A stretch of DNA of 48,768 nt from an uncultured bacterium (GCA_965364445.1 CBDTXM010000003.1:1-48768), one strand, 5' to 3'. Numbered from the stretch's first letter, positions 29,324 through 47,861 are shown. Program-made: numbers and translations. Notes: a model not told the origin generated them from the letters alone.

Positions 29324-31219
29324 TCACGCTCCGGCGGCCTCCCGGATGCGGAGCCGCTGCCCCGATGTGAGCATGTCGCGCGCAATCACATCGCGGACGA
29401 TGCGAGCCACGAACGAGTATCCCCTCGCGTCGGCGCTCAGCCAGCGATGCCATTCGAGCTCGTCGAGCGCTTCGGCGAGCGTCGGGCCCTCGAAGCCGGT
29501 GACCCGCAGCAGCGTCGCGGGGGTCACGGGGCTCTCGAGAGCAGCCGCGGCCGCGAGGGTTTCCTGCGCCGTTTCGCTCAGTCGTCGGAATCCGATTCGG
29601 ATCGCGGCGGTGACCGTGTCGGGCAGGTCTCCCGGGTATGCCTGATCCATGGTCTTGAAGGGTTCCGGCCAGCTTTCCTGCTCCTCGAGCTCCAGGCCGA
29701 GTCGGACACCGTTCAGCAGATCGACCGCGAACAGGGGCAGGCCGGCAGAGTCGACCAGGATCCGTCGCGCGAGACGTTCCGCATCGGCCGGATCGAGGTC
29801 CGGCATCATCGCCCGGACGAGATCCTGCGTTCGTGTGCTGTCGAACGGTGGCACCGCGATCGAAACGCCGGCGATGTCGTGCCCGATCCGGCCGTGCAGT
29901 TCGTCCATACCGGGTGACGGAGGATACCCGCGCATCGTCATCATGAGCGTGCTGGGCGTCCCTGACAGGTCCCGCAACAGGCCCGGCAGAGCCCTGAGAC
30001 TCGAGGCGTCCACGTAGTCCGCTTCGTCGATCCAGAGGACCAGCGGTCGAAGCTCGGCCACGGCCCGGGCAACTTCGGTGAATGCGCCCGGGAGAGCCAT
30101 CGGTGCGGCGCCCGCGGCGTAGTCCCGTAGAGCCGGATCCTGCCACCCCGTGCGCTCGAGCAAGGCGGCGACACTTCGGGGATCGGCGACTGCGGCTCCC
30201 TCGGCTTCGAGCAGTCCACCCCGGGCGAGTCCCAGCAGGGCTGACCACTCGGAGCTTGCGTCGGAGGGCACGGACCGTATGCGTGCGATCGCCGCGCCCT
30301 CGAGACGGGCGCGAGTCAGGACCTCATCGGCGAGTCGGGTCTTCCCGGAGCCGGATTCTCCGTGCAGCACCACGAGTGCGGGCTGCCGGTCGGAAGCGCT
30401 GTCCCGGATGACACCGAGTGCCGTCGCCAGTTCACGTTCCCGTCCGATCAGTGGCGGTCTGCGGGACCAGGCTTCCTCACGGGAAAGCTCCTCGGGAGCC
30501 CGGAAACTCCTCTCTTTCTCCACGCGCTCGGCCAGCGCAGCCGTCTCGACCTCCGGCTCGATTCCGAGCTCGGCGGTCAGACGTGCCTCGAATTCCTGGT
30601 ACAGCCCCAGCGCCGAGGCCCGCTCGCCGCGCAGCGCCGCCGATTCCATCAACAGCCGGATCGCGCCGTCCGAAAAGGGATCGAGGCCGAGCGCGCGTCG
30701 TGCGAGCTCTGTCGCGGCGATCTCATCGCCGCGCGACAGGCGTGCCGTCCCCTGCTCCAGTAACGCCGTCGTTGCGATCCGATTCCAATGACTTCGCTCC
30801 GCGGCCAACCAGTCTTCTACTTCGTCGCAGCCCGGGACGGCAAACCCTTCCATCCACGAGCCCCGCACCATCGCCGCCGCCTCCTCCCACCGGGCGGCAT
30901 CGATCAGCCGCTCGAACTCCTCGAGGTCCAGCCGGACGCAATCGACGTCGAGCACGACCTGGTCGCCCACCGACTCCAGGGCGCCGGCCGCGCAGGCGCG
31001 TCGAAGGACACGCAGGGCTTCGTTCAGGGAATGCCGGGCCGTCGAGTCCGGACGGTCTCCCCACAGAATCCCGACGAGGTGCTCCCTGCTTCTTCGACCT
31101 CCCTTCGAGCGCGACAGGTACAGCAGGAGAGCGAGGTTCTTTCGCCAGAGCAGTTCCTTCGGGGGCTCTCCCCCGTCCACGAGCAGTTCGACGGGGCCCA
31201 ACGTTCGGATTTCGATCAT
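29324..31219 (-). CDS. SARP-type transcriptional activator: wHTH + BTAD + STAND AAA ATPase
   Basis: IRTLG, LALLLYL...REHLVGILWG, ALGLDPFSD...LGIEP, LIGREREL, Walker A GESGSGKT, Walker B LWIDE, GLPLF. ATGA overlap with the kinase stop. Confidence 0.9.
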   Translation of the reverse strand: MIEIRTLGPVELLVDGGEPPKELLWRKNLALLLYLSRSKGGRRSREHLVGILWGDRPDSTARHSLNEALRVLRRACAAGALESVGDQVVLDVDCVRLDLEEFERLIDAARWEEAAAMVRGSWMEGFAVPGCDEVEDWLAAERSHWNRIATTALLEQGTARLSRGDEIAATELARRALGLDPFSDGAIRLLMESAALRGERASALGLYQEFEARLTAELGIEPEVETAALAERVEKERSFRAPEELSREEAWSRRPPLIGRERELATALGVIRDSASDRQPALVVLHGESGSGKTRLADEVLTRARLEGAAIARIRSVPSDASSEWSALLGLARGGLLEAEGAAVADPRSVAALLERTGWQDPALRDYAAGAAPMALPGAFTEVARAVAELRPLVLWIDEADYVDASSLRALPGLLRDLSGTPSTLMMTMRGYPPSPGMDELHGRIGHDIAGVSIAVPPFDSTRTQDLVRAMMPDLDPADAERLARRILVDSAGLPLFAVDLLNGVRLGLELEEQESWPEPFKTMDQAYPGDLPDTVTAAIRIGFRRLSETAQETLAAAAALESPVTPATLLRVTGFEGPTLAEALDELEWHRWLSADARGYSFVARIVRDVIARDMLTSGQRLRIREAAGA

Positions 31220-34164
31220 CGCTCGCATCTCCGTTCGTTGGATTCCAGGTCCCGGGCGACCCGGGCGAGGAGCGGCTGGAGCGCCGGATCCGGATTCTGC
31301 CACAATCTCTCTGCCTCGCGGCCTCGACTCCGGACGAGATCACAGATCGGAAGACCGATTCCGCCGGCATCCGTCGGAAGGGCCGATGCGAGCTCGACGG
31401 TCCGGATTCGCGCATGGACACCGAAGGCGGCGTCGATCTCGGCTGCCTGGGCAATCCCCGGAGCCGTTCCCTCCTCGAGGTCCGTGTTTTCGTGCCAGTA
31501 CAGCGTGCGCAGAGCGGCTGCCGTGTCGCCCGCAGCAGCCTGCCACCGGGCGCGAAGCCAGTAGGTCACAGATCGACCGAACGGATAGCGATCGAGGGCG
31601 AGGGAATCGTATCGAACCAGGGCGTCCGTCCGCCGGAGCGCTTCCTCCGCACCCTCCCCGGCAGCGAGTTCCAGGGACTCCAGCAGCGCAGCGGCATCCC
31701 AGGCGGGAGGCGTCTCCCGAGACGCATCCAGGCTGAGCAGCGAGTCCAGCCATGGGGATCGATCCCCTCCGGACGCCGATCGGATCTCGTGGGACGCGAT
31801 CCCGAACGCGGCCCTCCGCCGGTGGTCCGGGTCGGCCCCTTCGGCCGCCCACACACCCAGCAGCTCCACTACCCCTGAATCCGCGCCGCTCGCCGGGAAC
31901 CCCTCCAGGCCGATGGCGTGCGGCAACACCCGCCACTCGGCGGCCTGCAGCCGGGCCTCGATTTCGTTCGTGATGGCGGTGATCGTGTCCAGTGCCGGCA
32001 GCGCCTCCCGGATTCGACCCTGGCCGAGTCGGCCGAGGGCTATGGCCAGCATCCCCTGCGCGGCATCACCGGGACTTCGAATCTCGCGGGCGAGATCGAC
32101 CAGTCGATGGCCCAGCATCTCCTGGCTTTCTGGAAGCTCCACGTACCGGACCCACCGGCACCCGATTCGCAGAAACTCGAGCGTGTTGGAGACCCACTCG
32201 GGCGAACCCGGCGAGCCGAATCCCGAGACGAGCTCTCCGAATCCCGCCCTTGCCTCGGCCGGGTCGGAGAATCTCTCCAGGTACGCCTGACGCCACACCG
32301 TGCAGTAGTCGACATCATGCTGGTCCGGCTGGCCCGAGACCGTGTTGAGAAGCTCGAGGCTCCGGGCGGACGGCTCTTCGTGACCCAGTCGGATCAGGGC
32401 CTGGGTGAGATGCTCGACGGCGGGAGCGAGCGTGGGATCCTTTCGGACGGCGACCGCGAACAGCGCGACCGCGGAATCGACCGGTTCGCCCCAGAGCCCG
32501 CCCCGATGGTACAGCTCATCGGCATACAACAGGGTGGGGTACGCTTCCTCGGGAAACCGGCTGGCTGCCGCTGCCAGCTGCACCGGCTTCTCCTCGTACG
32601 ACGCGATTCGCGCGGCCAACAGTACCGAGTCCCGCACCGGAAGCTTCGCCGATCCGGTTCTGTGCAGCTCTTCGAGGTCGACTTCCACCGCCGCGTGGGC
32701 GAGCCAGCGCTGCGATTCCGCAAGGTGCCATTCCGCCAGGGCGAAGTCGGGTTCCACGGCCAGGGCATGGCTGAACTGCACGACTGCGTCTCGCAGGGCA
32801 TCTTCCCGGAACCGCTGCTTCCCCTCGAGAAACGAGAGCACTGCGTCCGCCGAGTAGTCCCGCAGCACGCCGGCTTCGTCCGGGCTCACCCGGGTGAGGC
32901 CCGCACCGCCCATCCCTTCGAGAACGATGTGAAACAAGGCCTGTCCCGCACCGATCGTGTCGCCCGACGCCACGCTCTGCCGATACGGGCCCTCCGACGC
33001 ACTCCCCTGGTGCAGGCGCGCAGTCACGAGCCACTCGCCGTTCGTCTCCGAGATTCGACACTCCGTGACCCACTCCACGCCCAGTGCCTCGGACCAGCCG
33101 GGCCAGTCTTCGCTCGGCAACGCATCGCGGTACCGATCCCAGCTGCTGAGCGTCTGCCGCTCGCTGAGCATGCGGACGTCCCGGAGCGCATCGAGCTGCG
33201 TCGTGGCGTACGACCGGGCGTATCGAGCGATCTCGGGGTCGACACCGGGCGAGCTGCAAGGGAGCACGGCCAGGTCGGCGATCGCGGGCGGAAGCGGTCG
33301 GGGCCAGACCTGCCAGACGAGGTACATCGAAAGCGCTCCGAGAAGCAGAACCGCAGCGCGGAGCCCTACCGACCGGCGCCCCGACCCACGGCGGAAGGCC
33401 CGGAGAAAGGCTTCGGCGTCGGACCACCGGCGCTCCGGATCCGGATCCAGGGCGCGTGACAGCACGGAGCGCAGGCGCAGCGGAACTCCGGACCAGTGGG
33501 CATGTGCCGGCGCCTGGTACGTGATCCAGCGGCGGCCCGTGAAGGCCTCGTAGATGGCCATCGCGGCCGAATACAGGTCCGATCGCTCGGATGCCTCGCC
33601 GCCGGCCAGTTGCTCGGGGGACATGTAAGCGGGAGTGCCGGGCGATTCCGTCCCGGTCACCGTCGGCTCCGCCCCCGTCATCTCCTTGCTGATGCCGAAG
33701 TCCGCCAGCAGCGCGCGGTCGGGACGCACGAAGATGTTTCCGGGCTTCACGTCGCGGTGCACGCGCCCGCCCGCATGGGTCGCAGCCAGCGCAGAAAGCA
33801 GGTTCGTTCCGAGGCGGACGGCTTCGTCCCTGGAGAGCGCCCCTTCCTCGAGGAGTCGTTCCCGGAGGGTGGGCGCATCCACGAAGTCCATCACATAGTA
33901 CTGCAGGCCACCCGCGGAATCGCATTCGTGGATGGCAACAATGTTCGGATGGGACACGGCGGCTAGGGCACGGGCCTCTCGCATGAACCGCTCGGATCCG
34001 ACCGCGGTCGCCAGCTCCGGGCGGAGAACCTTGATGGCCACGCGCCGACCGAGTGTCGTGTCCTCGGCCTGGAATACGCGCGCCATGCCGCCGGCGCCGA
34101 TCTCACCGAGCACCGTGTAGCGAGACGCCACGGCAGAGGCGAGTCGGTCCGATAAAGAGCCCAT
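31216..34164 (-). CDS. Hanks-type Ser/Thr kinase with TM, TolB-like and TPR-like domains
   Basis: GAGGMA, VAIK, HRDVKPGN, DFG, GTPAYMSPE, TM AAVLLLGALSMYLVW, LAVLP, helical repeats (ALAVEPDFA, AVRKDPTLA). Confidence 0.93.
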   Translation of the reverse strand: MGSLSDRLASAVASRYTVLGEIGAGGMARVFQAEDTTLGRRVAIKVLRPELATAVGSERFMREARALAAVSHPNIVAIHECDSAGGLQYYVMDFVDAPTLRERLLEEGALSRDEAVRLGTNLLSALAATHAGGRVHRDVKPGNIFVRPDRALLADFGISKEMTGAEPTVTGTESPGTPAYMSPEQLAGGEASERSDLYSAAMAIYEAFTGRRWITYQAPAHAHWSGVPLRLRSVLSRALDPDPERRWSDAEAFLRAFRRGSGRRSVGLRAAVLLLGALSMYLVWQVWPRPLPPAIADLAVLPCSSPGVDPEIARYARSYATTQLDALRDVRMLSERQTLSSWDRYRDALPSEDWPGWSEALGVEWVTECRISETNGEWLVTARLHQGSASEGPYRQSVASGDTIGAGQALFHIVLEGMGGAGLTRVSPDEAGVLRDYSADAVLSFLEGKQRFREDALRDAVVQFSHALAVEPDFALAEWHLAESQRWLAHAAVEVDLEELHRTGSAKLPVRDSVLLAARIASYEEKPVQLAAAASRFPEEAYPTLLYADELYHRGGLWGEPVDSAVALFAVAVRKDPTLAPAVEHLTQALIRLGHEEPSARSLELLNTVSGQPDQHDVDYCTVWRQAYLERFSDPAEARAGFGELVSGFGSPGSPEWVSNTLEFLRIGCRWVRYVELPESQEMLGHRLVDLAREIRSPGDAAQGMLAIALGRLGQGRIREALPALDTITAITNEIEARLQAAEWRVLPHAIGLEGFPASGADSGVVELLGVWAAEGADPDHRRRAAFGIASHEIRSASGGDRSPWLDSLLSLDASRETPPAWDAAALLESLELAAGEGAEEALRRTDALVRYDSLALDRYPFGRSVTYWLRARWQAAAGDTAAALRTLYWHENTDLEEGTAPGIAQAAEIDAAFGVHARIRTVELASALPTDAGGIGLPICDLVRSRGREAERLWQNPDPALQPLLARVARDLESNERRCER

Positions 34165-34234
34165 GGCCTTCCCTTCGGATGGCGGACCTGACGGGGGCTG
34201 TCGGTCCCGGCGCGATGGGATCTCGCGTCGACTG

Positions 34235-34264
34235 AGTCTAGGATCGCACGGGAGGGTGAGTCAA
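34235..34264 (-). promoter_or_regulatory. Candidate sigma70 promoter for the kinase operon
   Basis: TTGACT-N18-TAGACT on the minus strand, about 70 nt before the kinase ATG. Confidence 0.45.
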
Positions 34265-38124: not shown

Positions 38125-39261
38125 TCAGTGCGGCGCAGCGGCCGTGGGAACGCTCACGTCGGGCAACGGCGTATCGGCCGTGTGAGGCGGAAGCACCGGA
38201 TAGTCCACCTGCGGCTGACGCCCGGTCAGGGTCTCGAGAAACGCCGTGATCGCCCTCACCTCATCCGGTGTCAGCACGGCTCCCAGCTGCGCCGATCCCA
38301 TGATCGACACGGCCTCTTCGAGCGACCATACCTTGCCGGAGTGAAAGTAGGGCGCGGTGATCTCGATGTTTCTCAGCGAGGGCGACTTGAAGACGTACTG
38401 GTCGGCCTCGGTGTTGGTGACGCTGAACCGGCCCAGGTCGCCCACCGGCCGAATCGCCTCGGGCGGCGCCTGGACGACACCGAACGGGAAGTATCCCTCT
38501 CCGCCGAAGTTCACGCCGGCGTGGCAGCCGGAGCAGCCCTTCGACACGAAGACCTCGAGCCCCTTCACCTGCAACTCCGTCATCGCCGCGTCATCACCGG
38601 CCAGCCAGCGGTCGAACGGGGAGCCGGGCGTTACCAGCGTGGCCTCGAACGCCTCGATCGCCCGCGCCATGTTGTCGAAGGTCACCGGCTCGCCTTCACC
38701 TGGAAACGCCTTCGCGAACAGATCTCGGTACTCGGGAATCGAGCGCAGCGTCGCGATCGCTCGATCCGGATCGCTGGCCATCTCCACGGAGGCCTGCACG
38801 GGGCCCTTGGCCTGCTCCTCCAGGTCGGCCGCACGCCCGTCCCAGAACTGGGCGAGGTTGAATACGGCGTTCAGCACCGTCGGTGCGTTTCGCGGGCCTT
38901 TCTGCCACCCGTGGCCGATCGAGGTCTCCATCAGGTCGATCCCGCCGAGCGACAGGTTGTGGCAGGTATTGCAGCTGATCAGCCAGCTGGAGGAGAGCCG
39001 GGGCTCGAAGTAGAGCATCTTGCCGAGTTCGACCTTCTCGTCCGTCAGAGGATTGTCGGCCAGCTCGGGTGCTACGGCCGGAACGACCTCGAACAATGCC
39101 GCGGCCTGTGCCCGTATCGCCGGTCCCTCGCCGGTGACGACGGTCTGAGGCGGCGCATCGGTCGCTGCAGATCCTTCGCCATCCATCGTGTCGTCGCCTG
39201 CGGAGCAGGCCGCTACTACGAATCCTACCGCCAGCCATGTCAGCAGTTGCAGGCTCTTCAT
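38125..39261 (-). CDS. ccpA: Di-heme cytochrome c peroxidase (lipoprotein)
   Basis: Lipobox VAAC, LGKMLYFEPRLS, CNTCH, PRNAPTV, QFWDGRA, CSGCH, FKSPSLRN, PYFHSG. Confidence 0.92.
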   Translation of the reverse strand: MKSLQLLTWLAVGFVVAACSAGDDTMDGEGSAATDAPPQTVVTGEGPAIRAQAAALFEVVPAVAPELADNPLTDEKVELGKMLYFEPRLSSSWLISCNTCHNLSLGGIDLMETSIGHGWQKGPRNAPTVLNAVFNLAQFWDGRAADLEEQAKGPVQASVEMASDPDRAIATLRSIPEYRDLFAKAFPGEGEPVTFDNMARAIEAFEATLVTPGSPFDRWLAGDDAAMTELQVKGLEVFVSKGCSGCHAGVNFGGEGYFPFGVVQAPPEAIRPVGDLGRFSVTNTEADQYVFKSPSLRNIEITAPYFHSGKVWSLEEAVSIMGSAQLGAVLTPDEVRAITAFLETLTGRQPQVDYPVLPPHTADTPLPDVSVPTAAAPH

Positions 39262-39574
39262 CTCTTGCCTCGTTCCGTTCGAGTGCCGCGTCCCGTTGCG
39301 CCGGATCACGGTTTCACCAATCGTGCCACGGTCCGCGGCGATCGAGGGACGTAACGAATCGGGCGGGAATCCCGAGACGGCTCGCTAACCGACTCAGGCA
39401 CAAGCGGTTTCGGACCCGCGTGCCGCCGCGGCGCGGGGCAGGGCAACTGCGTGGCGGAAAGGCTCGACGCGCGGACGGGCCAATCCGTGAAGGAACGCGC
39501 CATATCGTCCCGGCTGGAGACGACCGACGTACTCGACGGGAGCGGGACCCGGGAAAGATCGGGAGGGGATCACG

Positions 39575-40699
39575 ATGTCGGCCATGTACTCCACCTGCCT
39601 TTTCTGCAATCGGCCGCTGGGCCGGAACGAGGTGATCGAGTCCTTCCCGGTCGGACGACGGCTCGCATTCGACGAGGAGCGGGGCCGGCTCTGGGTCGTC
39701 TGCCGGAGGTGCGAGCGGTGGAACCTCTCTCCGCTCGAGGAGCGGTGGGAGGCGATCGAAGAGTGTGAGCGTCTGTTTCGTTCGACCCGGCTTCGGGTGT
39801 CCACCGACAACGTAGGTCTCGCCCGCATCGCCGACGAACTGGAACTGGTGCGGATCGGGCGACCGGTTCGGGGCGAGTTCGCGGCATGGCGGTACGGCGA
39901 CCAGTTCGGGAGACGTCGGAAGCGTGCCATCCTCTACACGACGGCCGGTGTCGGGGCACTGGGCCTGCTCGCCGCAGGCGGCGCAGCGGCGGGGATATCG
40001 CTGGGCGGCGGGTACTGGGGTTTCACGCAACTTATCCAGGGAATCAACGCCGAGAGGACCGCGGCACGTCTTCGCAACGAATCGGGCGAGCAGGTCCGGG
40101 TGCAGCTCAAGCACCTTCAGCGCTCGAGACTCGTGCCGGCGGACAATCCGGAGGGTTGGGAACTGCACGTGCGGCACACCCTTGGCTGGTCGGCGGGCAT
40201 ATCGACCGGTGACGACGAATTGATGGTCCTGTCCGGGCCCCGCGCCGTAGCCATCGCCGGGAAACTGATGGCCCGCGCCAACCGGCGTGGCGGCAAGAAG
40301 GAGACGATCTCGGAGGCGGTGCATCGGATCGAGGCCGTGGGACACCCGGAGGCGTTCCTCCTGGAGGCGACCCGTGAAGCGGACCGGCTGCGAGAGGCGA
40401 AGGCGAAGGGAAGCGAAAAGAAGCGTAACAAGACGCAGGCCGGATCGCTCGCCGGGTTGCCGGGCGAAATTCGCCTCGCCGTGGAAATGGCGACGCAGGA
40501 GGAAGCCGAGCGCCGGGCCATGGAGGGAGAACTTCAGGTTCTCGAGGAAGCGTGGCGGCAGGCCGAGGAGATCGCCGGTATTGCCGACAATCTGCTGATT
40601 CCGAAGTCCATCGAGGAATTGCTCCGAGAAGAGAAACGCCGGGCGGGACTCGACCCGGGCTCGATGCCCGAACCGGACGAGGAGGAGAGAGAATCGTGA
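39575..40699 (+). CDS. Conserved-looking hypothetical protein with N-terminal CxxC...CxxC Zn finger and Gly/Ala-rich hydrophobic segment
   Basis: GGAGG RBS, CLFC...CRRC, central hydrophobic stretch, C-terminal ERRAMEGEL...WRQAEEIAGIADNLL. Confidence 0.8.
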   Translation: MSAMYSTCLFCNRPLGRNEVIESFPVGRRLAFDEERGRLWVVCRRCERWNLSPLEERWEAIEECERLFRSTRLRVSTDNVGLARIADELELVRIGRPVRGEFAAWRYGDQFGRRRKRAILYTTAGVGALGLLAAGGAAAGISLGGGYWGFTQLIQGINAERTAARLRNESGEQVRVQLKHLQRSRLVPADNPEGWELHVRHTLGWSAGISTGDDELMVLSGPRAVAIAGKLMARANRRGGKKETISEAVHRIEAVGHPEAFLLEATREADRLREAKAKGSEKKRNKTQAGSLAGLPGEIRLAVEMATQEEAERRAMEGELQVLEEAWRQAEEIAGIADNLLIPKSIEELLREEKRRAGLDPGSMPEPDEEERES

Positions 40700-41178: not shown

Positions 41179-41240
41179 CTGGCGTGCGTCGGCCCGACCG
41201 GGCCAGTTTGCCGGACTTCGAACTCGTATCGGAGACATGC

Positions 41241-42299
41241 ATGAGCCTCGAAGGACTTCTCGCGCTCGGATTCGAGCCCGCGGGCATCGAGCCCACGGTC
41301 GTCGAGGCGGGCAGAGCGGACGGTGCATATGTCCTGGCCCTCGAACGACCCGGGATGGGCACGCGGATCGCCATCTCCCTGCGGGCCGACTCACCGGATC
41401 GCGCCGACGCAGCCGCCCGGGAGGCGTTCGCGCGACTGGACCGACTGACTGCGCTGTTGAACCGCTACGATTCGGCCTCCGCCCTCGCCACGCTCAACGA
41501 CGCAGGTTGTCTATCCGACGCTCCTGCCGCGCTCACCTCGGTCGTGGACATCGCGCTCTCCATGGGACAGGCCACCGGCGGCGCCTTCGATCCGACGGTC
41601 GCGCCGCTGGTCAACCTGTTCGGTGGTGGTGAGCCGCGCGTGCCCCCGGGAGAGCTCGCCCTCACGGGGGCTCCGGAGCGTCGTCATCGCTCGAGTCCGG
41701 CTCCCGATCCCGTGATGCTCGCGGAAGTCCGGGCCTTGATCGGATCGGAACACGTCAGGCGGCGCGGGCGAACGATCGGCTTCGAGCGCCAGGGGATGAG
41801 CCTGACACTGGACGGCGTCGCGAAGGGCTGGATCGTGGATGCCATCGCGGCCGGACTCCGCGACGCCGGGATCCACGACTTCCTGGTGGACGCCGGCGGA
41901 GACATTCGCGCGCACGGCCGACCGGAACCGGGGCGCCCCTGGACCGTGGCCATTCAGGACCCCGATCTCGGCGATAACTGGCCCGATGTCATTGCTCTGC
42001 ACGATCGGGCAGTGGCCACCTCAGGCAGTTACGAGTTCTACTTCGATCCCGGTCGTACCCGCCATCACATCGTGGCGGGACGCGAAGCGCGGTCGCCGAA
42101 CGAACTCGCAAGCGTCACGGTCAGCGCTCCGGACGCCGCCACAGCCGACGCGCTGGCCACGGCGGTATTCGTGCTCGGTCCGGATGCCGGGCCAGCATGT
42201 ATCGAACGCATGCCCGGCTGCGAGTGCCTGCTTGTGGCTCCTGACGGGGCCCGGCACGCGACTACGGGCTGGTCGGCCTTTTCCCTCCAAGGCAGGTGA
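41241..42299 (+). CDS. apbE: FAD:protein FMN transferase, no signal peptide
   Basis: MGT, GGAFDPTVAPL, LDGVAKGWIVD, DAGGD, ATSGSY, HI, ADALATA. GGAG RBS before ATG 41241; alternative start GTG 41184. Confidence 0.92.
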   Translation: MSLEGLLALGFEPAGIEPTVVEAGRADGAYVLALERPGMGTRIAISLRADSPDRADAAAREAFARLDRLTALLNRYDSASALATLNDAGCLSDAPAALTSVVDIALSMGQATGGAFDPTVAPLVNLFGGGEPRVPPGELALTGAPERRHRSSPAPDPVMLAEVRALIGSEHVRRRGRTIGFERQGMSLTLDGVAKGWIVDAIAAGLRDAGIHDFLVDAGGDIRAHGRPEPGRPWTVAIQDPDLGDNWPDVIALHDRAVATSGSYEFYFDPGRTRHHIVAGREARSPNELASVTVSAPDAATADALATAVFVLGPDAGPACIERMPGCECLLVAPDGARHATTGWSAFSLQGR

Positions 42300-42842
42300 A
42301 TGATGGCGAAGTATCCCTACGACCCGCTGTCTCACCCGTACGGCTTCTTCCAGGTCACGGCCCTCGTGGCCCTGCGATTCGCGATCGGATGGCATTTCTT
42401 CTATGAAGGACTGTCGAAGATCACCAATCCGTACTGGACTTCGGCTGGCTATCTGGATGCCTCGCAGGGCTTCGCGGCCGACTGGTTCGAATGGCTGGTG
42501 ACGGATCCCGGCCGCCTCGCGCTCGTGGACGCGCTGAACCAATGGGGTCTGCTGATTCTCGGGCTGTTGCTGATGCTCGGACTGTTTACCCGGACGGCGA
42601 CGGTGTTCGCCATCGTCCTGCTGGCCCTTTATTACGTCGCCGCGCCTCCCTGGGTCGGATTCGAGTACAGTTTCCCGCAGGAGGGAGCGTACGTGATCGT
42701 CAACAAGAACCTCGTCGAGCTCTTCGCGCTGTTCGTCACCCTGATGTTCCCCACGGGCCGCCTGATCGGACTGGACCGGCTGATTTGGTGGTCCCGCAAC
42801 ACGACCCCACCGGAACCGATTCCCGTCGGACAGCAGGCATGA
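42300..42842 (+). CDS. DoxX/DoxD (TQO small subunit-like) membrane protein
   Basis: LRFAIGWHFFYEGLSK, LGLFTR, VNKN, GLD, about 4 TM helices. Confidence 0.85.
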   Translation: MMAKYPYDPLSHPYGFFQVTALVALRFAIGWHFFYEGLSKITNPYWTSAGYLDASQGFAADWFEWLVTDPGRLALVDALNQWGLLILGLLLMLGLFTRTATVFAIVLLALYYVAAPPWVGFEYSFPQEGAYVIVNKNLVELFALFVTLMFPTGRLIGLDRLIWWSRNTTPPEPIPVGQQA

Positions 42843-42873
42843 GACCGAATCGGGTGAAACGGGAGATACGACG

Positions 42874-44604
42874 ATGAGCGACGAGATCCGGAACGAAGAC
42901 GGGATGAACGAGGAACGGGAAGACAGGGAGCGAGTCGACCACGAGGAACCGCTCGACGCGGGTACTGCCGCGGAGGGTGAGGCGACTCCGGAGCCTCCTT
43001 CGCCACCCTCACCGCCGCCCCCGCCGACCGCGGCGAGCGCGGAACCCGACCACGTCGCCTCCGGAATGAACCGGCGCGATGTGGTGAAGGCCCTGGCGAC
43101 GGTTCCGTTCGTCGGCGCCCTCGGGTACGAGACGATTCGCAAGTACGGCATCGAGGACGCCCGCAGCGAAGCGATCGCCCGGGAAGTGGGCATCGAGCTC
43201 GAGTCGCCTGCATTTTCGGAAGAGGCGATCAGTCGCAGCAGCCAGACCATCCGCATCGGAATCATCGGCAACGGCGGCGAAGGAGAGTCGCTGGTCCGCA
43301 GCCTCGGGTTCGCGCACCCGGACTGGATCCAGGATCGACGGACCAGCGCCGCGGAAGACCCCAAGGACCGGCACCTGCAGGAATGGCTCGCGCAGCAGGA
43401 TCTCAACGTCCAGATCACCGCGGTGTGCGACGTGTTCGACGTGAGGGCGGAGCGCGCGATCGCCGCCTCCACCCAACCGCTCCGGCCGGGTGGCGACACG
43501 CGCACCCTGCAGCCGGCGAAACGGTATCGGCACTACGAGGATCTGCTGGCGAGCCCGGATGTGGATGCCGTGATCATCGCGACGCCCGACCACCTGCACG
43601 CCACGATCACCATCGCGGCAGCCCGCGCGGGCAAGCACGTGTACTGCGAAAAGTGCATGACACGCACCTTCGAGGAGGTGTTCCCGATGGCGGACGCGGT
43701 CCGCGAGTCCGGGATCGTCTTCCAGCTCGGGCACCAGAACCGTCAGCTCGAGAGCCACGAGAAGGCGCGCGAGGTAGTGGCGAAGGGCCTGCTCGGGCCG
43801 CTGACCCTCGTCGAGACCACCACGAACCGCAACGATCCGTGGGGCGCCTGGGTGTGGGACATCCACCCCGAGGGAAACCGGAGCACGATCGACTGGGATC
43901 TGTTTCAGATCGCGGCCGGAAGCCGGGTCCCGTTCAGCCTGGAGCGCTTCTTCCGCTGGCGCTGCTGGTACGATTACGGCACCGGCCTTTCAGGGGATCT
44001 GCTCTCGCACGAGTACGACGCCGTGAATCAGATCCTCGGGCTCGGAATCCCGGCGACCGCCACGGCATCGGGCGGGATCTACTATTTCAAGGACGGACGG
44101 GACGTGCCCGATGTCTTCCAGGCCGTGTTCGAATACCCGTACCGCGACCTGACCCTGGTCTACAGCGCGACGCTGGCGAACGGGAATTACCGGGGCCAGA
44201 AGTACATGGGCCACGATGCGACGATGGAGGTGTCCAGCGGCCTCAAGGTCACCGCCGATGGGTCGTCCACGCGGTACAAGGAGATGCTCGATGACGGCAC
44301 GGTCAGTCCGCGCCGACCGATGCTCACCTACCAGAGCGGGTACAAGGGGCTCGACGCCGTGACCACGGCGACGCAGGAGTACTTCGCCAGCCGCGGCCTG
44401 ATGTTCACCTACAAGGGGGGGCGGCGGATCAGCACCTACTACCTGCACCTCAAGGAGTGGCTGCAGGCGATCCGCGACGGAACGCCGGTGAGCTGTGACA
44501 TCGAGCAGGGTGTCGAGGAAGCCGTGACCTGTCACATGGCGACGAAGAGCTTTCTCGAGGGCCGGCGCGTGGCATGGGATCCGACGACGAGGCAGATCGT
44601 CTGA
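42874..44604 (+). CDS. Gfo/Idh/MocA oxidoreductase with twin-arginine motif
   Basis: NRRDVVK plus a hydrophobic helix, IGIIGNGG, ATPDHLH, YCEKCM, WRCWYDYGTGLSGDLLSHEYD. Confidence 0.9.
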   Translation: MSDEIRNEDGMNEEREDRERVDHEEPLDAGTAAEGEATPEPPSPPSPPPPPTAASAEPDHVASGMNRRDVVKALATVPFVGALGYETIRKYGIEDARSEAIAREVGIELESPAFSEEAISRSSQTIRIGIIGNGGEGESLVRSLGFAHPDWIQDRRTSAAEDPKDRHLQEWLAQQDLNVQITAVCDVFDVRAERAIAASTQPLRPGGDTRTLQPAKRYRHYEDLLASPDVDAVIIATPDHLHATITIAAARAGKHVYCEKCMTRTFEEVFPMADAVRESGIVFQLGHQNRQLESHEKAREVVAKGLLGPLTLVETTTNRNDPWGAWVWDIHPEGNRSTIDWDLFQIAAGSRVPFSLERFFRWRCWYDYGTGLSGDLLSHEYDAVNQILGLGIPATATASGGIYYFKDGRDVPDVFQAVFEYPYRDLTLVYSATLANGNYRGQKYMGHDATMEVSSGLKVTADGSSTRYKEMLDDGTVSPRRPMLTYQSGYKGLDAVTTATQEYFASRGLMFTYKGGRRISTYYLHLKEWLQAIRDGTPVSCDIEQGVEEAVTCHMATKSFLEGRRVAWDPTTRQIV

Positions 44605-45824
44605 TGCGTTCGGCCAGGGTCCAGCTCGGGCTGATGATGTTCCTGCAGTACGCGATCTGGGGCGCGTGGGCCCCGGTGCTGTCGTCGTACATGCTCAACG
44701 ACCTCGGGTTCAGTGGATCCGAGGTCGGCTGGATCTACGCCCTGCTTCCCCTTGCCACGATCGTCGCCCCGCTGATCGGCGGGCAGGTGGCCGACCGCTG
44801 GTTCGCCTCCGAGAAGGTGATCGCCTTCCTGCAGCTCGGCGGCGGCGTGCTGCTGCTGGTCGCAGCGAGGATCTCCGACTTCGGCACGCTCGCCGCAGTG
44901 ATGCTGATGTACTGCCTGCTGTACGCCCCGACGCTGGCACTCACCAACTCGGTGGCGATGATCAACATGGAGGACTCGGAGAAAGAGTTCGGTGCGATCC
45001 GCGTATGGGGCACCCTGGGCTGGATCGCGGCGGGATGGATGCTCACCGGCTGGCGCTGGTTCGGCGAGAGCGGGACGCTGCCGGCGATGCAGGGAGACAT
45101 GCTGTTCCTGGCGGGATTGCTGTCGCTCGTGATGGGCCTGCAGGCATTCCTGCTGCCGCATACGCCGCCGCAGAAGGAGGGCGTGAGCCCCTGGGCCTTC
45201 CTCGAGTCCTTCAAGATGTTGAAGGTGAAGGACTTCGCAGTATTCGTCGGGATCACGTTCGTGGTCGCGACCGAGCTGGAATTCTACTACATCCTCACCG
45301 CGCCCTTCCTGGAGTCGGAGGCGATCGGCGTTTCCAGCCGGAACATCCCCGCAGTGATGACGATCGCGCAGTTCGCCGAGATCTTCGTCATGGCGTTCCT
45401 TCTCTCCTGGTCGCTGAAGCGCTATGGGATGCGAAGGACGCTCGCGATCGGAGTCGTGGCCTGGCCGATCCGCTACATCATCTTCGCGATCGGAAGCCCC
45501 GCCTGGCTGGTCATCGCATCGCTGGCCCTGCACGGATTCTGCTACGTGTTCTTCTTCGTGGCCGCGTTCATTTACGTGGACAAGATCGCTCCGCCCGACA
45601 TCCGGGCCTCCGCCCAGAGCCTGATCGCGATCATCGCGCTCGGGTTCGGCCGCTTTCTGGGGAGCCTGTTCGCCGGCTGGGTGCGGGACCTGTTCACCAC
45701 CGAGGCGGGAACGAACTGGACGTACGTATTCCTCGTCCCCTGCGCGTTGACGATCTGCTGCGCCGTGGCCTTCCTGATCTTCTTCCGGGATGAATCGAAG
45801 CCGATCGCACCGGCGACAGCCTGA
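44604..45824 (+). CDS. MFS transporter, nucleoside:H+ symporter (NupG/YegT-like)
   Basis: MMFLQYAIWGAW, ADRWF, IRVWGTLGWI, LHGFCYVFFF, IRASAQ. TGATG overlap. Confidence 0.9.
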   Translation: MRSARVQLGLMMFLQYAIWGAWAPVLSSYMLNDLGFSGSEVGWIYALLPLATIVAPLIGGQVADRWFASEKVIAFLQLGGGVLLLVAARISDFGTLAAVMLMYCLLYAPTLALTNSVAMINMEDSEKEFGAIRVWGTLGWIAAGWMLTGWRWFGESGTLPAMQGDMLFLAGLLSLVMGLQAFLLPHTPPQKEGVSPWAFLESFKMLKVKDFAVFVGITFVVATELEFYYILTAPFLESEAIGVSSRNIPAVMTIAQFAEIFVMAFLLSWSLKRYGMRRTLAIGVVAWPIRYIIFAIGSPAWLVIASLALHGFCYVFFFVAAFIYVDKIAPPDIRASAQSLIAIIALGFGRFLGSLFAGWVRDLFTTEAGTNWTYVFLVPCALTICCAVAFLIFFRDESKPIAPATA

Positions 45825-45849
45825 GCTCGAGCGAGATGGGAGAGACCTG

Positions 45850-47097
45850 ATGAACGATAGACTCGGTGTAGGTTTCGTCGGCGCGGGGTTCGTCACCGGC
45901 TTCCACATTCGGAGCTGGGTAGGCGTTCGCGATGCGGACGTCCTGGGCGTCGCCAGCCGCACCCGGGCGAGCGCCGAGGGGGCGGCGAGGCTCGCCCGCT
46001 CGCTCGGCGTCGGGGATGCGAAGGCGTTCCCGAACGTCACGGAGATGGTCGCGGATCCATCGATCGACGCCATCTGGATCTGCGCGCCGAATTACGCCCG
46101 GCTCGAGGTGATGGAGGAGATCGTCCACGCCCTCGACCGGGGAGACGGGAATCTGAGAGCCGTCGCCTGTGAAAAGCCGCTGGGCCGGAACGCCGCGGAG
46201 GCGAGAAAGATGCTGCAGCTCGCCGAGCAGGCCGGACTTCTGCACGGCTACCTCGAGAATCAGCTGTTCTCGCCCGGCGTCGTCCGTGGGCGGGAGATCG
46301 TCTGGGCCCGGGGCGCCGCGCTCACCGGGCCTCCCTACCTCGCACGCGCCGCCGAGGAGCACAGCGGGCCTCACATGCCCTGGTTCTGGGAAGGCGAACT
46401 CCAGGGCGGCGGCGTGCTCAACGACATGATGTGCCACTCGGTGGAGGTCGCGCGCTTTCTTCTCACGCCGCCGGGAGCGCCCCGCGAGGTGCTCACGCCG
46501 ACGAAAGTGACCGCATACGCTTCCTGCCTGAAGTGGCAGCGACCGCAATACGCAGAACAGCTGGCGGAGATGAGCGGCGGCTCGCTGGACTACCGCAGCC
46601 GCCCCTCGGAAGACTTCGCCCGGGCGCTGGTGGAGTACCGGGACGCGGACGGTGGACGGCGGATCGTCGAGGCAACGACCTCGTGGTGCTACGTCGGTGC
46701 GGGCCTGCGGCTCACCATGGAGCTGCTCGGCCCCGAGTACTCGATGGCAGTCAACTCGCTGGACGCAGGTCCGAAGGTGTTTTTCAGCCGGGAGGTGCAG
46801 GGTGACACCGGCGAGGACCTGGTCGAAAAGCAGAACGCCGAGACAGGCGTGATGCCGATCGTGTCCGACGAAGAAGCCGAGTACGGATACATTGGTGAGA
46901 ACCGGCACATGGTTCAGGCGTTCCGCGCCGGCGAGATGCCGATGGAGACCTTCGCCGACGGCGTGGCCGTCACCGACCTCCTGATGGCTGCCTACATGAG
47001 CGCAGAGCAGGAACGTACGATCGAATTCCCGCCGGAGGGCCTTGTCGGCTTCGTTCCCGCCGTGGCTCGGGGCGAGTGGAATCCCGGGAGGGAGTGA
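45850..47097 (+). CDS. Gfo/Idh/MocA oxidoreductase (cytoplasmic)
   Basis: GVGFVGAGF, CEKPLG, GYLEN, GGGVLNDMMCH. Confidence 0.9.
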   Translation: MNDRLGVGFVGAGFVTGFHIRSWVGVRDADVLGVASRTRASAEGAARLARSLGVGDAKAFPNVTEMVADPSIDAIWICAPNYARLEVMEEIVHALDRGDGNLRAVACEKPLGRNAAEARKMLQLAEQAGLLHGYLENQLFSPGVVRGREIVWARGAALTGPPYLARAAEEHSGPHMPWFWEGELQGGGVLNDMMCHSVEVARFLLTPPGAPREVLTPTKVTAYASCLKWQRPQYAEQLAEMSGGSLDYRSRPSEDFARALVEYRDADGGRRIVEATTSWCYVGAGLRLTMELLGPEYSMAVNSLDAGPKVFFSREVQGDTGEDLVEKQNAETGVMPIVSDEEAEYGYIGENRHMVQAFRAGEMPMETFADGVAVTDLLMAAYMSAEQERTIEFPPEGLVGFVPAVARGEWNPGRE

Positions 47098-47861
47098 TGA
47101 ACTCGATCCGGACTCTGATGGCGTTGATCGGCCTGGTAGCGGCCGGGATCGGTGTGTGGTTCTTCATGACCTACGATGGCGAGACGCAAAGGGGAATCCC
47201 GGAAGCCGCCGTCGTCGCGACCGCTGAACAGGAGGCGGGGATGGGACTTACGGAGCCGCGTGACGTGGATGGCCCGCCGTTCACGGTCGAAGAGGGCTTC
47301 GTACCTCTGCTGGGACAGTGGGGCGACGGCCGATATCACAAGGGTGGGTGGAATCATTACGGACCGGGCTGGTTCACGCTCGACCACGAGACGGGAGTTC
47401 TGGCCTCGCACGGGGGCATGGGACTGATGTGGTTCGCGGCGGAGCAGTTCGGAGACTTCGTGCTGCGGCTCCAGTTTCAGACGTCCGTGCCCGAATCCAA
47501 CTCCGGCGTGTTCCTTCGCGTGCCCGAGGTGCCGGCCAGCGACGACTACATCTACCACAGCTTCGAGGTGCAGATTCACGCCACGGCGCCCGACCCGATT
47601 CACCGCACCGGGGGCGTCTACGACGCGGTCGCCCCGTCCGAGCACCGCGAACGTCCGCCCGGCGAGTGGAACGACATGGAGATCTCGTTCGTCGGTGACC
47701 GTATCACCGTAGTGCTCAACGGCGCTCAGGTCGTGGACTGGAGCGCGGAGCCAGCCGGGAAGGTGGCCGACTTCGCGCCCCGGGGCTTCATCGGGCTGCA
47801 GAACCACGACTGGGAGACCAGCGTGTGGTTCCGCAACATTCGGGTGAAGAAGCTGGACTGA
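47097..47861 (+). CDS. DUF1080 (3-keto-disaccharide hydrolase family) protein, membrane anchored
   Basis: N-terminal TM, FGDFVLRLQF, NSGVFLR, EVQI, TGGVYD, GEWN, GFIGLQNH, FRNIRVK. TGATG overlap. Confidence 0.9.
   Translation: MNSIRTLMALIGLVAAGIGVWFFMTYDGETQRGIPEAAVVATAEQEAGMGLTEPRDVDGPPFTVEEGFVPLLGQWGDGRYHKGGWNHYGPGWFTLDHETGVLASHGGMGLMWFAAEQFGDFVLRLQFQTSVPESNSGVFLRVPEVPASDDYIYHSFEVQIHATAPDPIHRTGGVYDAVAPSEHRERPPGEWNDMEISFVGDRITVVLNGAQVVDWSAEPAGKVADFAPRGFIGLQNHDWETSVWFRNIRVKKLD

Follow-up and report, generated by a model that had tools for sequence, protein, structure and literature searches.

We describe a gene module in which a flavin transferase (ApbE), a small membrane protein (DoxX) and a probably exported nicotinamide adenine dinucleotide (NAD)-type dehydrogenase of the Gfo/Idh/MocA family (Gfo1) are encoded side by side, and we discuss the prospect that the three proteins pass electrons from periplasmic sugar oxidation to quinone. 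The module belongs to a six-gene run, apbE-doxX-gfo1-MFS-gfo2-DUF1080, at positions 41184-47861 of a 48,768-nucleotide stretch of DNA from an uncultured bacterium (GCA_965364445.1 CBDTXM010000003.1:1-48768). This whole stretch, hereafter the window, is contig C3 of a Gemmatimonadota metagenome-assembled genome (MAG) of 2.66 Mb in 193 contigs, 92% complete; open reading frame (ORF) calls and Pfam matches place every gene of the run on the plus strand. ApbE, DoxX and Gfo1 very probably work as one functional module. In addition, Gfo1 carries a motif, D-A-V-T-T-A-T, resembling the sites at which ApbE attaches flavin mononucleotide (FMN). The motif is an observation new to this analysis, beyond a preliminary description of the window that had already proposed a flavinylated, quinone-coupled glycoside dehydrogenase.

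A gene core kept across genomes and metagenomes

The preliminary description had named co-occurrence of apbE, doxX and this Gfo subfamily as a check on its proposal, and the co-occurrence holds. A genome scan, with one genome per species, returned 80 loci encoding Gfo1 relatives at 59-96% identity; these are mostly from Gemmatimonadota, with some from Acidobacteriota and Aminicenantes and a few from otherwise labelled MAGs. The nearest named relative (L004, 96% identity in Gfo1) is the MAG of 'Candidatus Carthagonibacter metallireducens'. DoxX is encoded directly upstream of Gfo1 in all 69 loci with at least 800 nt of upstream sequence. Of the 60 loci where the upstream sequence extends to 2.1 kb or more, 58 have apbE immediately before doxX in the same orientation; the two exceptions (L046 and L079) have an ApbE bearing a lipobox, encoded in the reverse orientation about 1.1-1.5 kb upstream. 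Further downstream, 38 of 49 loci encode MFS, Gfo2 and DUF1080 together (DUF1080 is found in 40), and 9 encode none of the three. The conserved core is thus ApbE-DoxX-Gfo1, often accompanied by the three other genes as accessories.

The linkage is also seen from the side of ApbE. From 251 sampled Gemmatimonadota genomes, we took the best 29 ApbE loci besides the window's own. In the 12 with an orthologue-level ApbE (hidden Markov model score of at least 384), DoxX follows in every case, and Gfo1 comes next in 11 of the 11 with downstream DNA. The remaining 17 loci hold more distant paralogues without a DoxX following. One group of Gemmatimonadota paralogues (L224-L227 and L229-L236), 37-40% identical to the window ApbE, has no DoxX or Gfo1 nearby. 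Some of the genome tallies include two unpublished genomes, G053 and G360; no individual claim depends on them.

A metagenome scan with distant members gave 80 loci: 21 of the Gfo1 subfamily and 59 of ordinary Gfo paralogues of the twin-arginine translocation (Tat) type. In the subfamily, DoxX is directly upstream in 18 of the 18 loci with upstream DNA, and each of the 16 that extend to the C-terminus carries the motif (DSVTSPT and DSVATAT variants included). The 59 ordinary Tat-Gfo loci (51 full length, 44 with at least 800 nt upstream) contain no motif, no DoxX and no ApbE.

Fusion of DoxX to Gfo, a second check named beforehand, occurs in nature. In locus L054, one 695-aa frame comprises DoxX, a 20-residue linker, a twin-arginine (RR) motif, a hydrophobic helix and Gfo1. 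The topology of DoxX, with its cytoplasmic C-terminus (see below), would therefore make the RR-helix the fifth helix and the Gfo domain periplasmic. DoxX and Gfo1 also share a single 772-aa frame at L024:5224-7539, with the usual 'MSDEIRN' start inside it; this frame may reflect a lost stop codon, read-through or an assembly error instead of a true fusion. Longer proteins containing this DoxX were also searched for, with 8000 candidates scored; the 65 matches include no DoxX-Gfo fusion of about 700 aa. Because that search gave none, DoxX-Gfo fusions rest on L054 and the doubtful L024.

About 58 of the 65 matches constitute a second DoxX fusion family (P0151-P0209; 495-553 aa), distributed over KSB1, Pirellulales, Hydrogenedentes, Bryobacterales and others. 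Its layout is DoxX (43-58% identical), RR-x-x-L-K, a helix, basic residues, a flavinylation motif and a domain of about 300 aa. The motif is canonical in many members (xAVTGATIK, xSGATxK); in others the G is replaced by S (DAVTSATIK, DTVSSATIK), as in Gfo1. DoxX apart, no Pfam family and no PDB relative was found for this protein family, including its 300-aa domain; the Atlas offers a lead, at 0.91, to clusters of which one is automatically named NADH:flavin oxidoreductase. ApbE adjoins the fusion gene in two of eight loci (L197 and L198 of L196-L203), both in Acidobacteriota genomes. A third arrangement is present in the Acidobacteriota loci L204, L205, L206 and L209, where a signal-less ApbE and DoxX accompany a 438-aa RR-Gfo of another subfamily. 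In these Gfo proteins, a conserved 'RDAAG[ST]QV[ST]G' stretch occupies the place equivalent to the motif of Gfo1.

A probably exported dehydrogenase with a flavinylation-like motif

The target motif of ApbE is D-x-x-[S/T]-G-A-[S/T], with FMN attached to the last residue (2025 ApbE review, PMC12052999). The D-A-V-T-T-A-T of the window Gfo1 fits at positions 1, 4, 6 and 7, and has T, not G, at position 5; its last Thr is the candidate FMN-bearing residue. Conservation was counted in 75 close Gfo1 homologues: position 1 is D in 73 and N in 2, position 4 is T in all 75, position 5 is S in 46 and T in 29, position 6 is A in 61 and P in 14, and position 7 is T in 74 and S in 1. A HMMER search of 1.84 billion representatives with Gfo1 gave 334 matches at E ≤1e-30, and 60 full-length representatives were aligned to place the motif segment. 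The segment, with the same motif, is kept in 15 of the 16 closest representatives (at least 42% identity); the sixteenth, P0013, is unaligned there. P0015 and P0018 (42-43% identity) carry the fully canonical DAVSGAT, and in P0015 an FMN_bind match below threshold (18.7 bits, cut-off 22) ends at the motif. From P0021 on, the representatives are ordinary Tat-Gfo proteins of 430-480 aa (42% identity or lower) with a gap or unrelated sequence at this place. In its own genome, Gfo1 is one of 3 among 2082 gene-like ORFs to carry the relaxed motif.

Other flavin acceptors were considered and set aside. A strictly canonical site was sought in the window with a six-frame [ST]G[AS][ST] scan, which gave only out-of-frame matches within the cluster. 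An FMN_bind (PF04205) domain inside Gfo1 was rejected with no match in the window protein up to E 10. DoxX is itself an unlikely target of ApbE: no Ser or Thr is invariant among 44 sequences, and T152, alone in reaching at least 90% in alignment A3, is missing in P0155. The earlier statement that the window holds no standard ApbE substrate stands, as a PF04205 match is absent there. The sole such match in the genome is an RnfG/NqrC-like subunit with a canonical 'ITGAT' site, encoded in an Rnf/Nqr-type operon on contig C17.

Gfo1 has the Rossmann and C-terminal alpha/beta domains of the Gfo/Idh/MocA family, as judged from Pfam and fold matches, and both its Gly-rich stretch (GxGxxG) and E195-K196 (the EKx lysine) are invariant in alignment A1. 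An AlphaFold2 (AF2) model of residues 58-512, built from 129 sequences, has the family fold with a predicted local distance difference test (pLDDT) score of 94.9 and a predicted template modelling (pTM) score of 0.93; an earlier model from 38 close sequences was discarded, its C-terminal domain having a pLDDT below 50 over 225-452. Among the nearest folds are levoglucosan dehydrogenase, scyllo-inositol dehydrogenase and the Alistipes glucoside-3-dehydrogenase AL3. The strongest PDB sequence match is 8tdf (E 8.7e-28), limited to residues 147-337; others include the entries 1ofg and 1h6a of the Zymomonas glucose-fructose oxidoreductase (GFOR). The top NCBIfam model, the BT_2158-family glycoside 3-dehydrogenase NF058561, reaches 107 bits against a cut-off of 750 and covers residues 213-403 only. 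Gfo1 resembles glycoside 3-dehydrogenases by sequence, but is no member of the curated BT_2158 family. In the model, the motif lies within an insert of about 60 residues, in a loop (366-377) that runs into a helix (378-385). The motif block has the lowest pLDDT of the model (55), as would be expected of an exposed, cofactor-dependent loop.

The N-terminus of Gfo1 homologues opens with a conserved 'MSDEIRN' and continues with a variable acidic, proline-rich tail, RRxxLKAL, about 17 hydrophobic residues and a basic cluster. In the window protein, the twin-arginine motif 'RRDVVKAL', similar to the S/T-R-R-x-F-L-K pattern of Tat substrates, is at ORF residue 67, with a hydrophobic stretch after it; every sequence of alignment A1 keeps the RR pair. 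An AxA-type cleavage site is lacking in most homologues, and basic residues follow the helix. The region looks like an uncleaved Tat signal-anchor, with an enzyme that would be membrane-anchored, not soluble. The low-complexity tail before the RR motif, 20-110 residues of acidic and proline-rich sequence, makes the n-region unusually long by the standard of Tat signals.

The cluster ApbE scores 231.6 bits against PF02424 (cut-off 25.6), over profile positions 1-265 of 266, and only 115 against the E. coli-type equivalog NF007774 (cut-off 498). The closest solved structure is Vibrio cholerae ApbE (6nxi, E 1.8e-32). Alignment to 6nxi and 6nxj reveals that the catalytic His (altered in the mutant entry 6nxj), ATSGxY and TADxLAT are all kept; His257 is the catalytic residue of the V. 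cholerae enzyme (PMC12052999). The protein has no signal peptide or lipobox and no hydrophobic N-terminus, and the same is true of the adjoining ApbE homologues in 58 loci, whose N-terminus holds a conserved, non-hydrophobic 'LLxLGFE' segment. Its sequence is that of the cytoplasmic type known from Klebsiella pneumoniae. Because this ApbE is without a signal peptide, flavinylation would take place in the cytoplasm and precede Tat export. The genome encodes a second ApbE on contig C5, which has an N-terminal hydrophobic anchor. It directly follows a 443-aa ORF in which several haem-binding CxxCH motifs occur (C5:42308-46156, L001), and the two may be another flavinylation-linked electron-transfer pair.

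The product of doxX is a four-helix membrane protein. It passes the cut-off of the DoxX model PF07681 and, at 20.4 bits, falls short of that of the DoxD model PF04173 (22.7); hence, the family assignment is DoxX, not DoxD. From its sequence, the positive-inside rule places the N-terminus, the short second loop and the C-terminus in the cytoplasm. By analogy with related subunits, DoxX is proposed to be the quinone-side partner of Gfo1. A predicted Gfo-DoxX complex, also suggested in advance as a check, supports this pairing weakly: Gfo1 with NAD, FMN and DoxX scored 0.38, against 0.00 for the best of three controls, with at least 67% contact agreement between runs and a partner pLDDT of at least 78. 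In the benchmark of this score, 58 of 80 solved complexes attained the mark, as did 2 of 110 mismatched pairs.

Layout of the locus and accessory genes

The six genes are tightly packed, as first described: apbE and doxX abut, 31 nt separate doxX from gfo1, and the later ORFs overlap by 22-35 nt (Table 1). A scan for promoters and terminators at the locus found no signal exceeding shuffled sequences. For the MFS transporter (major facilitator superfamily), the model TIGR00889 gives 289.6 bits, under its cut-off of 446. Gfo2 is presumed from its sequence to be cytoplasmic. The DUF1080 protein is a family match with a predicted hydrolase activity; in Bacteroides, the DUF1080 protein BT2157 hydrolyses 3-keto-trehalose (Liu et al. 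2021, PMC8121099).

Table 1. Coordinates of the genes and of the Gfo1 segments in the window
Feature	Position	Strand	Evidence
apbE	41241-42299 (GTG alternative start 41184)	+	PF02424, E 1.5e-68
doxX	42300-42842	+	PF07681, 36.9 bits (cut-off 23.6)
gfo1, NAD-type Gfo/Idh/MocA dehydrogenase	42874-44604	+	PF01408, PF02894
gfo1, acidic/proline-rich N-terminal tail	42874-43065	+	
gfo1, RR motif and hydrophobic anchor, catalytic domain after	43066-43146	+	
Flavinylation-like motif D-A-V-T-T-A-T in Gfo1	44353-44373	+	translation verified
MFS transporter, Nuc_H_symport (NupG/XapB-like)	44574-45824	+	PF03825, E 1.1e-100
gfo2, second Gfo/Idh/MocA, signal-less	45790-47097	+	PF01408, E 1.9e-16
DUF1080/3-keto-disaccharide hydrolase family, N-terminal hydrophobic anchor	47076-47861	+	PF06439, E 3.2e-38, 132.1 bits (cut-off 26.8)

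The genes upstream of the cluster appear unrelated to it and encode a GNAT protein, a family-less protein, a di-haem cytochrome c peroxidase, a periplasmic binding protein and a PNP oxidase. Two of them lie just upstream of apbE: the di-haem peroxidase (MauG/CCP family; 38125-39384, minus strand) and a 374-aa ORF without a Pfam family (39575-40699, plus strand). Both were left out of the synteny counts. Downstream of the cluster is a convergent MotA/ExbB-like gene. At 29324-34260 on the minus strand, a 1014-aa Ser/Thr protein kinase adjoins a BTAD/AAA_16 regulator; both are apparently unrelated to the cluster.

Electron route, competing explanations and known systems

The gene arrangement first described is confirmed, and the interpretation given with it is partly supported, with those of its parts open to computational checks all turning out as it proposed. 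We lean modestly towards a mechanism in which a Tat-exported, membrane-anchored, NAD-bound and flavinylated glycoside dehydrogenase passes electrons via FMN and DoxX to quinone. Gfo1 would bind NAD tightly as it folds in the cytoplasm, and there the cluster ApbE would attach FMN to the last Thr of D-A-V-T-T-A-T. The sequence and the natural fusion suggest that the loaded enzyme would then be exported via Tat through its RR motif and anchored by its helix beside DoxX. In the periplasm, Gfo1 may oxidize a glycoside, most likely at C3 judging from family resemblance. The tethered FMN would re-oxidize the bound NADH, taking the place of the second substrate of a ping-pong cycle, and its electrons would be handed to quinone at DoxX. 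By analogy with Bacteroides BT2157-BT2159, DUF1080 would cleave the 3-keto-glycoside, the MFS transporter would import the product, and cytoplasmic Gfo2 would reduce it. More tentatively, and with some doubt on our part, this DoxX subfamily could serve flavin-tagged periplasmic enzymes in general as a dock on the quinone side, in at least three architectures (ApbE-DoxX-Gfo1, the second fusion family, and ApbE-DoxX with the 438-aa Gfo), the FMN of Gfo1-type members acting as a swinging arm from NADH to quinone.

Several findings weigh against this mechanism. The first concern the motif. Position 5 of the window motif is T rather than G, no cluster protein has a canonical [ST]GA[ST] in frame, and FMN_bind is not found in the window Gfo1 even at E 10. 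In the fumarate reductase of K. pneumoniae, a G-to-A change lowers flavinylation to about 50%; an A-to-V change likewise leaves about 50% in one tested substrate (PMC12052999). The 438-aa Gfo of the third arrangement (L204-L206, L209) is without a recognisable flavinylation motif. The quinone side also raises questions: the DoxD Pfam model stays under its cut-off for the cluster DoxX, and quinone binding among DoxX proteins is established, in the available text of PMC10084136, only for the distant DoxD of Acidianus, cited there. Complex scores up to 0.60, a range that takes in the 0.38 of Gfo1-DoxX, include 7 of the 80 solved complexes and both mismatches. Since the BT_2158 model stays so far below its cut-off, the substrate class of Gfo1 is a family-level guess; moreover, nine loci have none of the three downstream genes. 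Finally, outside the Gemmatimonadota/Acidobacteriota clade, ApbE is encoded within the 5-kb flanks of just 5 of the 21 distant subfamily loci. Of these five, L091 and L110 encode signal-less proteins, L089 and L098 proteins with a lipobox, and L093 one of the window type. The compartment of flavinylation is therefore not uniform, with two lipoproteins and two signal-less forms among the distant ApbEs.

On the motif, the same observations feed a competing explanation, which we regard as unlikely: the ApbE-DoxX-Gfo1 module is real and Gfo1 is not flavinylated, with ApbE acting on another target or in flavin supply or hydrolysis, much like an FAD pyrophosphatase, and the loop serving a structural or substrate-binding role. 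Position 5 is non-canonical in 75 of 75 close homologues, the window Gfo1 lacks an FMN_bind match, no motif can be recognised in the third ApbE-DoxX-Gfo arrangement, and pyrophosphatase activity exists among ApbE-family members (PMC4767422). Nonetheless, distant Gfo1 members carry the canonical DAVSGAT, and the same alternation of G and S occurs in the otherwise canonical motif of the independent DoxX fusion family. DoxX offers no invariant Ser or Thr as an alternative target, and the cluster ApbE keeps the catalytic His of a transferase.

A redox-neutral cycle appears improbable. Here, NAD would be recycled on a second sugar, as proposed for the acceptor of BT2158 (Liu et al. 2021, PMC8121099), and DoxX would be a membrane dock or a regulator-sequestering subunit, not an electron carrier. 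The weak prediction of a Gfo1-DoxX complex would fit such a role, as would the DoxX/D-family protein BtdS, which sequesters a regulator at the membrane; however, BtdS also belongs to a membrane dehydrogenase, as its small subunit (PMC10084136). The redox-neutral cycle also leaves unexplained why a flavin transferase and the flavinylation-like motif go strictly together with DoxX and occur in none of the 59 ordinary Tat-Gfo loci. Electron flow in the reverse direction, with quinol reducing FMN via DoxX and the enzyme acting in the periplasm to reduce, for instance, keto-sugars, is improbable too. It has precedents in the flavinylated extracytosolic fumarate and urocanate reductases, which draw electrons from the membrane chain (PMC8238504). 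Against it, DUF1080, which acts on 3-keto-glycosides, is encoded downstream in 40 of 49 loci and fits oxidation first. Electron flow from quinol to bound NAD is, moreover, energetically unfavourable given the redox potentials. Chance or lineage-specific juxtaposition without shared function is extremely improbable: most of the 80 genome loci do come from one phylum and are mutually related, but the linkage survives at identities as low as 34-42%, and recurs in Acidobacteriota and on metagenome contigs; L054 is a natural DoxX-Gfo1 fusion, and the reciprocal ApbE test gave 12 of 12.

The FMN- and DoxX-linked mechanism that we favor has partial parallels in several known systems. The first are the periplasmic glycoside 3-dehydrogenases (BT2158 with BT2157 and BT2159; Alistipes AL3, 8tdf/8tdh), which share with Gfo1 the Gfo/Idh/MocA fold (fold match TMq 0.64), a twin-arginine N-terminus, and DUF1080 and a second Gfo as neighbors. 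Unlike the loci of the Gfo1 subfamily, ordinary Tat-Gfo paralogue loci are without DoxX, ApbE and the motif insert, a comparison that covers these paralogues and not the BT2158/AL3 loci. The electron acceptor of periplasmic BT2158 is described as 'as yet unidentified' (Liu et al. 2021, PMC8121099). Zymomonas GFOR is likewise a Tat-exported Gfo, one that binds its nicotinamide cofactor tightly and follows a ping-pong cycle (PMC8121099); it differs in being soluble and in recycling its cofactor with a second sugar, where a tethered FMN and DoxX are proposed for Gfo1. In LacABC and ThuAB, periplasmic 3-oxidation of glycosides is also tied to the respiratory chain (PMC8121099). These belong to another enzyme family with an FAD and cytochrome c route.

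The second group comprises the ApbE-flavinylated systems (NqrC/RnfG, NosR, PplA, fumarate and urocanate reductases, DUF2271, DUF3570; Meheust et al. 2021), in which ApbE also goes with a carrier bearing such a motif and with a membrane partner. Common to both would be a covalent FMN, unable to diffuse away outside the cytoplasm. In contrast to these systems, the carrier here is an NAD-type Gfo, not FMN_bind, the membrane partner is DoxX, and ApbE is signal-less. Genes without a signal peptide or lipidation site were excluded in the survey of Meheust et al. 2021 (eLife), according to its main text. K. pneumoniae is known to encode a signal-less ApbE paralogue in addition to a secreted one (PMC12052999); the substrate of that cytoplasmic ApbE, a soluble fumarate reductase, stays in the cytoplasm, whereas the presumed substrate here bears a Tat motif.

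The third parallel concerns DoxX. Proteins of the DoxX/DoxD type are small subunits of thiosulfate:quinone oxidoreductase (TQO) and of the hydroxyhydroquinone dehydrogenase BtdLS (PMC10084136). Both the DoxDA TQO and BtdLS pair a small four-helix DoxX/DoxD subunit with a catalytic dehydrogenase subunit, and quinone is the acceptor of TQO (PMC10084136). The cluster differs from DoxDA in a DoxX that scores under the DoxD cut-off and in that DoxA was not seen there; for DoxDA and BtdLS, neither ApbE nor covalent FMN is reported in the available text of PMC10084136. DoxX, Gfo, MocA and PF01408 are unmentioned in the main text of the flavinylation surveys in eLife (2021) and mSystems (2024). Full-text literature searches, with the supplementary tables of surveys outside their scope, returned no paper connecting DoxX with ApbE, flavinylation or Gfo/MocA. 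From this and from the known roles of DoxX/DoxD subunits, we therefore place the proposed route among flavinylation-based extracytosolic electron-transfer systems.

Gfo-type dehydrogenases that are Tat-exported with a locked-in NAD(P) abound: Gfo1 has 35,080 matching representatives at E ≤0.001. How such enzymes dispose of electrons in the periplasm is unsettled, and the Gfo1 subfamily suggests a route by way of covalent FMN, DoxX and quinone. Enzymes of this kind can be searched for by a D-A-V-[S/T]-[G/S/T]-[A/P]-[T/S] insert together with an upstream doxX. If the proposed route is true, the ApbE-dependent systems of extracytosolic electron transfer would come to include a dehydrogenase of the NAD type and the DoxX family, itself poorly understood, DoxX proteins would gain a defined role, and flavinylation would be seen to occur before Tat export. 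For Gemmatimonadota and Acidobacteriota of soils and sediments, it would tie carbohydrate scavenging to respiration and provide periplasmic sugar oxidation with a new respiratory entry point.

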